Below, piece by piece: positions 36,824 to 39,800 of a DNA stretch of 64,000 nucleotides (position 1 is the first letter of the stretch; each line of letters starts with the position of its first letter). The translations under genes and the position numbers were made by a program. Origin of the DNA: Lingula anatina. Taxonomy: Eukaryota; Animalia; Brachiopoda. The notes beneath the pieces are model-generated. The model saw only the letters and a list, made by a program, of their open reading frames with translations, was not told the DNA's origin and made no database searches. The stretch lies in the NCBI GenBank assembly GCA_051362555.1, contig CM120640.1, positions 35,545,967-35,609,966 on the forward strand. The letters are read 5' to 3'.

Positions 36824-39800
36824 ATGGGAACTCTAGAATGTTGTTTAGGAATCTTTATATCTCTACTATGCATAAGCTACATAAACTGTTACTTTGTTAG
36901 CATAGACGCTAACGCAGAAGAGTGTTATTTCGAGAGGGTAAAACCCGGCACGAAGATGAGCTTGATGTTTGAGGTGGCAGAAGGCGGATTTCTGGACATA
37001 GATGTGAAGGTAATGGCAAATCACCTTTAAACAAGGTAGTGCACAGAATTAAGGTCCTGTGGAATATTGTTTCTACCATATATATAGATGAACGTGATCT
37101 GTAATGTTCTGAGCTACTACTGTAAGCATGAAAGCATATGTGGCCTGTTAATGCAAACACTAACTATTACACTCAGTGCTGCTAGTGGGTGTATTGCAAT
37201 ATTGCTATATTTATCTCTGACATCCTGTTAAAAATCTGGAAGGCAGCCATCCTTCATATTAAGGGAAACTTTAAGAAATGCATTGTGAGTTCAGATCTAT
37301 TATGAAATGAAAGAAAAAACTACCTTTGCATGTTTATTATATGCTGTGCTTCTTTGACATATGTTGTGGAATATGACGAAAAATCATTTTTAAATGAAAA
37401 ATGGTATGTATTGAGTTGAAAATTTAACTAAAAATCCATATGGTCTCCTGACAAGCTTTAACAACCACATGGTGTGATGTGTGAAATTTTGCCCTTATAA
37501 GATATGCAGGTATTTCATAAGAACAGCTTTTGTTATAGTTGAGAACAACTTCCATTGATTATGGATGTAGAAGTAAATATACTTTTAAAGCATTGCTCTC
37601 CCAATATGTTAATTCTGAATTTATATACACAAAATCTTTTTTTTATTTTGTTAGATCACTGGACCAGATGGAAGAGAAATTTATTCAGGAGATAGAGAAT
37701 CAAATGGAAAGTACACCTTCTCTGCACATATGGAAGGCGTGTACAAGTATTGTTTTAGCAATAGGATGTCAACAATGACACCCAAAATTGTTATGTTTTC
37801 ACTAGATGTAGGGGATCAGCCTGGTGGAGAGAAGGATAATACCATGGAGAGTGATGGTAAGATATTTTGGAGCCAACAATCTCCAAAATTCAACCAAATG
37901 GTGATGGGTAATACTCATGACAACTTCAGCAACTTAAAGGTTGAAGATGTTACTGGTTCCTTTAAGACATTAGTGCCTTTGGTATATCCTTATTCTGATT
38001 AAATATTGGACTAATTTTAGTAGTTTTGAATGCCATTGTTTCTGTAAAGTGAAATTAATTGTTTCGCCAAAAGATGATGAGGAAACAGAGGATGATGTAG
38101 AGGGAGCTCAACTCAATGCAACAAAACTTGAAAGAGGACTTCAAGACATAAGTAAGCTAGACCAGGAAATAAACACTTCTCTTCTTAAGGGTATATTGAT
38201 GTTTATTGTTGGGACATCATAAATGTATCATTTACTTTATTATTACTATTATTATTTGTAAGGGAGTTCTGCTGGCATCGTCTGTCTCCTCCAGTCTTTT
38301 TCTTGGTTTGGTTTTTGAAATTTTTATTAGAAAATCAAATGTTTAATTAAATATATAAATGAAAATATACTGTGACAAAGTGGTGGGAAAGGGAACATGG
38401 TTATGGTCATTGTCATCACCTACACTCATTTACCTTCAGACAAAGTATGCTGAATGCTAGTATAGTCATAATAGACCCTTTGTCCTTTTGCTAATATTAC
38501 ACCCCTTAACATCATTTAATACGTTGAATGCAAGACACCATTTGTCTTGTAGTGGTTCATGGGAAGTGTGTGCATTAAAAGGGTGTGGTTTGATACTAAT
38601 TATAATGTGTTTGTAGATTTAGCATAGTTTAATTACGTTGTTGTGTTGAAAGTAGTTTTAGTGAAGTATGGATTATGAACTTTGTTTCTTTTTCTGATCA
38701 GCTGCTGTTTAATTGCTTTGTTGCTTAATAGAACGACTTGACTTTATCGTTAAACTTGAATCTGTGATAAAGAAATAAAACTGCCATAGAAAATATGTCA
38801 TTGTTTGTATTAAACATAAATTTGTCTGAATTTTTACATTTAACCAGTCTTTTGTCAGCGTTTAGTTGTTTTTAGAGTTTTAAGTGTTTCATTTAATACT
38901 ATAGTAGGTTCTTCCAAAACCAACTTAAATCCATTATGTCAATGTCTCACAAGATGCCCTTATCAGATAATATGGCTATAGGTGTCTTTACCTAGAAGTG
39001 CACAATAAGACATTGACATAATGGAGCGCTAATAAGTGTGATTTTAAGCCTTTGTTGTAAGAACCTATTATTTACACAGCTGATAAAATTCTTGGCTTCT
39101 TTGCTTTTATTTAATATTTTCTTTCTTATTATGATTTATTATTTATAGTATTGCCACTTTTTTTTTCATCTGGTTTATAATCTTAATTTGTAGTGTTTAG
39201 AAACTTTGTGATTTCTCCTAATTCTTTGCCTCCTTCCACCTCCCATCCTTCCAGCCAATGAAAATAAACTGGTGGATATGATTAGTGAACTGTCCACTAG
39301 CCTAACAGGGGTAAAGCATGAGCAGGATTACATGGCTCTGAGAGAAAGAGTTCACAGAGCAAGTAAGTAGAATGGATCCGTGGGTGGGGGCAACCATTAA
39401 GGCGGGGGGGGGGGGGGGCATTTTCTGAAGGTAAGTGATGGCAATGTTACGGTTCCCCTGCCACAACTTTGGGACAGTAAGTTCAGCAACAGGAAAATGG
39501 TTCCTTTATTTCAGCACAACATACTAAACTAGAAGAAATGATTAATGAATTGTCTACTGCCTTAACTGGTGTTAAACATGAACAAGATTACATGGAAGTA
39601 AGAGAAAGAATACATAGGGCAAGTAAGTATTGAGAACCAGGAAAGGAGAATATTATCCTGATTGATAAAAGGAAAATGTGATCTTTATTTCATTATGTAA
39701 GATCAGTCATGTTAAATGGTCGTTGGGTTGGGTCAATTTCCTCTCTGAGTAGTGATTTTGTTGAAAAAAATTGTTTGGAAATATTTTTATGTACTGTGAC

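Follow-up and report, generated by a model that had tools for sequence, protein, structure and literature searches.

We consider it probable that the TMED2 gene of the brachiopod Lingula anatina makes two p24-beta receptors of equal length from a tandemly duplicated stalk exon. Exactly one copy is present in each message read, the ratio of the copies differs between sample sets, and the resulting proteins are likely to enter the same p24 complex with different outer stalk surfaces. The core of this reading, a tandem pair of mutually exclusive exons that gives two p24-beta variants, was put forward in a preliminary description of the same DNA, and it is borne out by RNA joints and by a dN/dS of about 0.10 between the copies.

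The window, i.e., the whole 64-kb stretch of DNA that was analysed, carries Lingula anatina TMED2 (p24-beta), as judged by domain and best match. The product of the 3b form matches human TMED2 with an E value of 4e-97 and TMED5, TMED9 and TMED10 at 1e-20 or weaker, and PF01105 (EMP24_GP25L) spans the whole length of both 206-residue products. Exons 1, 2 and 4, together with either stalk copy, encode these proteins, and the spliced translations are the Lingula anatina RefSeq proteins XP_013408022.1 (3a form) and XP_013408023.1 (3b form). The parts of the gene are as follows.

36824..37009, + strand: TMED2 exon 1, coding part; signal peptide and start of the GOLD domain (RNA joint 37009>37655, RefSeq match)
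37655..37856, + strand: TMED2 exon 2; remainder of the GOLD domain and linker (sequence, RNA joints)
38074..38151, + strand: TMED2 cassette exon, 78 nt, in frame (RNA joints, RefSeq isoform X1)
39222..39254, + strand: acceptor of exon 3a with its unusually C-rich pyrimidine tract (base composition)
39255..39362, + strand: exon 3a, divergent copy of the stalk (coiled-coil) exon (sequence, RNA joints)
39372..39421, + strand: G-rich element of the intron, including a G15 run (predicted pairing with the 3a pyrimidine tract)
39431..39436, + strand: extra GTAAGT within the 152-nt intron, donor-like, 84 nt upstream of the 3b acceptor
39477..39482, + strand: second extra GTAAGT, in the likely branch region, 38 nt upstream of the 3b acceptor
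39515..39622, + strand: exon 3b, conserved copy of the stalk exon (sequence, RNA joints, ortholog consensus)
40011..40135, + strand: TMED2 exon 4, coding part; membrane helix, cytosolic tail and stop (sequence, RNA joints)

Lingula has the signal peptide, GOLD domain, stalk helix, membrane helix and FF tail of the p24-beta/TMED2 subfamily (PF01105; PDB 21GL chain B). In contrast to the single exon 3 found in 79 of 79 other loci, it has two. No Rfam family was found in 36500-41500. A further RefSeq protein, XP_013391803.1, is identical through exon 2 and then reads into intron 2; it comes from another scaffold, likely an allelic one of an older assembly.

The preliminary description gave the architecture of the pair correctly. 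Exons 3a and 3b are each 108 nt long and lie 152 nt apart, with CAG before, A/GTAAGT after and phase 1-1; the flanking exons end at 37856 (exon 2) and begin at 40011 (exon 4). The copies encode the same residue in 25 of 35 whole codons (26 of 36 with the split first codon), and 12 of the same-residue codons differ silently, with no stop and no indel. At the nucleotide level, 78 of 108 positions are identical. The copies are thus adjacent, equal in length, in the same frame and phase, and homologous in sequence, as homologous mutually exclusive exons are. Exon 3b matches the consensus of 97 ortholog segments at 33 of 36 positions and exon 3a at 26 of 36; two of the 3a residues, E7V and V29L, occur in none of the 97 segments. 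Acidic residues are lost from 3a, as had been described, but the net loss is just one (6 in 3a, 7 in 3b) because an H>E change near the start of the segment offsets the others.

Of nine RNA runs found by species label, eight (X1-X8, from three studies, P1-P3) were examined, with 6-26% of each run read. Summed over the runs, there were 337 joints from exon 2 to 3a, 322 from exon 2 to 3b, 214 from 3a to exon 4 and 288 from 3b to exon 4. All four single-inclusion joints were seen in all eight runs, so the case of a 3a that is never included, which the preliminary description had named as fatal to its reading, does not apply. The same is true of constant co-inclusion, since each copy is joined separately to exons 2 and 4. 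A joint was counted only from at least three reads with two starts, a floor that rare double inclusion could escape, and at this floor neither the 3a>3b joint nor the exon 2>exon 4 joint was found in any of the eight runs. The isoform with both copies (joint 39362>39515), suggested earlier because 108 is divisible by 3, accordingly found no reads at this floor. The joined form would be an open frame of 242 residues and the form that lacks both copies an open frame of 170; since both are in frame, their absence is not a matter of frameshifted messages being degraded.

These joints also bear on whether the second copy might simply lengthen the stalk as a constitutive duplication, be a dead pseudo-exon, or be an artefact of assembly. 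The frame that contains both copies is open, as a constitutive duplication needs, but the missing 3a>3b joint refutes it as the main form. Hundreds of joints on both copies, from the same flanking exons, argue against a pseudo-exon, and RefSeq models from another assembly yield the same proteins, which argues against an artefact. We regard all three as extremely improbable.

The 3a share of upstream joints was 0.78-0.80 in P1, 0.18-0.27 in P2 and 0.39-0.47 in P3. It was even within studies (p 0.97, 0.73 and 0.17) and unequal between them (p 2e-29), in a comparison of coded samples that confounds study, tissue, library and genotype. This suggests regulation of the 3a/3b ratio by tissue or stage, with genotype and library as confounders. 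Runs X7 and X8 differ from window positions 36786-40773 by many fixed substitutions and by indels in the UTR, unlike X1-X6, and their source may be a divergent population, or a cryptic species that carries the same label. Both runs use the exon pair.

The preliminary description overlooked a cassette exon at 38074-38151. Its inclusion is supported by 70 reads into the exon and 61 out of it, in runs X7 and X8 (study P3) only. All 61 outgoing reads join it to 3a, and no joint from the cassette to 3b was listed. The same two runs contain 71 exon 2>3a and 169 exon 2>3b joints, so that the cassette is strongly coupled to 3a (Fisher p 6e-27, with unlisted joints taken as zero). The cassette form is RefSeq isoform X1 (232 residues), which differs from the window at one residue, where the reads agree with RefSeq: position 38143 is G in all reads listed and A in the window. 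The 26 residues of the cassette have an acidic first half and contain the sole N-X-S/T sequon of the three isoforms (N-X-T). In a structure model, the first half is disordered and the last 11 residues prolong the stalk helix, with low confidence. We considered and rejected the cassette as a third, partial copy of exon 3, since its likeness to 3b was not significant (262 of 2000 shuffles).

The cassette is placed at the junction where long isoforms of lamprey, amphioxus and jawed vertebrates insert 6-7 residues. In mouse TMED2, a 21-nt exon at this GOLD-stalk junction is muscle-specific, according to the available text of PMC8925968. The vertebrate gene is thus alternatively spliced at the same place as that of Lingula, but its exon adds residues and does not swap a stalk exon, and it is likened to the Lingula cassette by position alone. 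At the exon 2/3 junction, isoforms of scallop and starfish gain 2 residues, and those of amphioxus and lamprey gain 6.

What does the swap do to the stalk? In the structure model, the exon-3 segment is one helix that continues into the membrane helix. With the heptad register assigned by eye rather than taken from a solved complex, the a positions are L6, L13, V20, M27 and H34, which vary less among orthologs than any other heptad position (9 of 319 departures). Variant changes fall at b, c or f in 35 of 39 cases and never at a or e, as compared with 188 of 319 (59%) among orthologs (p 9e-5), although the 39 changes pool Lingula 3a with three related acorn-worm variants and so overcount independent events. 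The pattern suggests that the core is kept and the outward face of the stalk altered, i.e., a changed surface rather than a changed assembly. The switch of p24 partners proposed earlier is less likely than such a surface change, because the predicted core positions are kept. On balance, we favour 3b as the ancestral-type form and 3a as a regulated variant that may retune contacts with cargo or neighbours by tissue or stage, since the 3a substitutions avoid the predicted helix core. The helix of p24-gamma2 is said to have a role in GPI cargo recognition. The stalk has been linked to p24 oligomerisation, a matter that the consulted parts of the literature treat as unsettled (PMC10932740, PMC7045115), and polar stalk residues of TMED9 bridge higher-order assemblies, as described in the available text of PMC11414720. 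Outward variable residues on a retained fold are a general pattern of homologous mutually exclusive exons, as far as the accessible part of one survey goes (PMC7954323).

Both copies are evidently under purifying selection, as had been proposed from the silent differences: pS between 3a and 3b is 0.69 and pN is 0.16 (Fisher p 3e-6), the dN/dS given above being computed between the two copies and not among orthologous 3a exons. Variants listed from the reads, at least four in 3a and at least one in 3b, are all silent. This constraint could be read without a functional switch. Both copies could be kept and spliced exclusively while their proteins are near-equivalent, with 3a tolerated, the outer residues drifting and the core constrained. 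Such a view accommodates the mostly conservative nature of the changes, which lie at positions that are the most variable among orthologs too (the 59% at b, c or f), and purifying selection follows simply from it, because 3a supplies up to 80% of messages. It sits less well with the two 3a residues that none of the 97 ortholog segments contains, with the coupling of a second exon to 3a, with the strong shifts in ratio between sample sets, and with the persistence of a similar variant in three acorn-worm families. We therefore think near-equivalence rather unlikely, and prefer 3a as a regulated variant.

A comparable arrangement appears in acorn worms. In RefSeq, Saccoglossus, Glandiceps and Ptychodera are each represented by two isoforms of 203 residues, identical outside the 36-residue segment and separated within it by 13, 15 and 12 changes, respectively; these isoform proteins suggest a tandem exon pair in acorn worms as well. 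Charge loss was rejected as a common theme, since the acorn-worm variants have 8-9 acidic residues versus 8, with no net loss. No other variant pair was found among 223 segments, apart from one pair in separate records that differs at four places. When metagenome contigs were scanned by pattern, 79 genomic loci were found that have the exon-3 donor, each with one exon-3 match, and 36 of the 79 also contain exons 2 and 4 with a single copy of exon 3; the window, used as a control, gave two copies. Many of these 36 loci are near kin, with 19 distinct exon-2 peptides among 35 scored. Two word-based, and hence weak, searches of protein regions found canonical forms only with Lingula 3a as query (24 of 25 candidates scored), and only the query itself with the Ptychodera variant.

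Did the two lineages duplicate the exon separately? We think that acorn worms quite likely duplicated the same exon independently of Lingula, and that separate duplications are more probable than a single ancient event. A single duplication would have occurred in the last common ancestor of brachiopods and acorn worms, with loss in most other bilaterians. Silent sites are close to saturated between 3a and 3b, which makes the pair old, though undatable, and suits an ancient event; an attempt at dating by silent sites was abandoned because of this saturation and because the controls were skewed by base composition. E8D and an altered N11 are common to all four variants, positions 28-29 read A-L in the Glandiceps variant as in Lingula 3a, and in none of 97 other segments, and on a tree of the 36 columns one origin (p-AU 0.33) and a Lingula-only pair (p-AU 0.15) are both compatible with the AU test. 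On the other side, D25 is present in both Lingula copies (8 of 97 others) and V10 in all acorn-worm copies (16 of 97), which is the pattern that duplication within each lineage would leave. E-V is retained at positions 28-29 in two of the three acorn-worm variants, the best tree puts Lingula 3a outside the acorn-worm variant branch (94/98), and the 36 loci that span exons 2 to 4 are single-copy. Furthermore, one origin would need many losses, given that no other such pair was found among the 223 segments. We consider a single origin improbable. Convergent exon duplication in orthologs is well documented, according to the consulted part of PMC9741552.

How is one copy chosen and the other left out? 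Frameshift does not enforce the choice, since the joined form is in frame. Our preferred mechanism, among candidates that are all weak, is tentative: the choice may be set within the 152-nt intron by a G-rich fold-back and donor-like words. With 16 C among 33 nt, the pyrimidine tract of 3a exceeds in C content all others of the 348 acceptor-like sites in the window. No stretch of the plus strand is richer in G than the one found 10-60 nt downstream of exon 3a. Tract and G stretch are predicted to pair in a local fold (mean pairing 0.8), and within the pre-mRNA the G-rich element has its best partner in the 3a acceptor, at -45 kcal/mol versus -30 for the next. This pairing was noticed after the fact and is compositional, as 377 of 1000 shuffled acceptors pair as well. 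Exons of the Dscam/ATE1 type are chosen by competing RNA pairings that are conserved, specific to sequence and supported by covariation. We propose that the G-rich element would fold back onto the C-rich acceptor, hiding 3a so that 3b is chosen, and that a protein that binds G runs could hold the element open, so that 3a is chosen. The donor-like words beside the 3b branch region would act as decoys and stop the 3a donor from reaching the 3b acceptor. Two extra GTAAGT words in the 152-nt intron have a probability of about 0.001, estimated after the fact, and those at 39431-39436 and 39477-39482 are used by none of the joints listed in the eight runs. Folded alone, the intron is no more stable than shuffles (z 0.62). 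Pairing of the G run inside the intron (39452-39462), which would shorten it, was rejected, since it appears only when the intron is folded alone and falls to about zero when the 3a acceptor is present. Homopolymers of G or C, 10-19 nt long, occur at five places in the window (7589, 39404, 48337, 49980 and 62674), which has 33% GC, so the G15 run is not by itself unique.

Exclusivity could instead be steric: a 3b branch point within about 50 nt of the 3a donor would make the two exons unjoinable. Such interference is a known mechanism (described in the available text of PMC5740500), the intron is short at 152 nt, and about 35 nt separate the 3a donor from a weak branch-like word. However, the consensus branch word is absent from the intron, and several AG dinucleotides between the branch-like word and the 3b acceptor argue against a distant branch point. 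We judge steric exclusion to be improbable, and less so the fold-back with decoy donors.

The type of event is well known. In the consulted parts of three surveys (PMC5740500, PMC7954323, PMC9741552), homologous mutually exclusive exons are adjacent, equal in length, in the same phase and used one per message, with the fold kept, variable residues predicted to face outward, sample-dependent use and recurrence in separate lineages, all as in Lingula. Unlike the pairs surveyed there, the Lingula pair encodes the coiled-coil stalk of a trafficking receptor and has one copy coupled to a cassette exon. TMED genes are not named in the main text of PMC5740500 or PMC9741552. For p24-beta, the event is unreported in the papers searched. 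The preliminary description knew of no earlier account, and we found no paper that treats a TMED2 exon as duplicated or exclusive in a search outside which most subscription papers fall, and beside which the MetazExp tables (PMC8728262) might hold the event. The isoforms themselves are not new, since RefSeq already carries three as automatic models (XP_013408021-23). These models and the X1/X2 pairs of Saccoglossus, Ptychodera and Glandiceps are the same isoform proteins as those discussed here, as automatic predictions, and we found in print no analysis of their exclusivity, ratio, selection or distribution across phyla.

We suggest, as a speculation that may well be wrong, that brachiopods and acorn worms each swap the stalk exon to make p24 complexes that are specific to tissue or stage, alike in their core and different in their cargo-facing surface, and that the GOLD-stalk junction is a recurrent splicing switch in bilaterians, used for a swap here and for a short insert in chordates. 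If this is true, the natural variants would show which outer residues of the stalk decide the cargo of p24 complexes. The choice of cargo, and a role of the stalk beyond oligomerising, are described as unsettled in the available text of three studies (PMC10932740, PMC7045115, PMC11414720). Since p24-beta is among the most conserved subunits, stalk swaps in two phyla so far apart narrow the outward residues worth testing to a short list. The pair is also a likely case of convergent exon duplication beyond ion channels and muscle genes.

TMED2 has close neighbours in the window. Exons of an upstream gene at 31005-35042 (+) end less than 2 kb before TMED2, with motifs that we take to resemble the second-largest subunit of an RNA polymerase, probably Pol III. 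Just beyond the TMED2 3ʹ UTR, open frames of 98 and 132 residues at 40985-41750 (-) are possibly a convergent gene. Further downstream, the exons at 44619-45474 (+) encode WD40 repeats, presumably of a protein like Notchless/NLE1.
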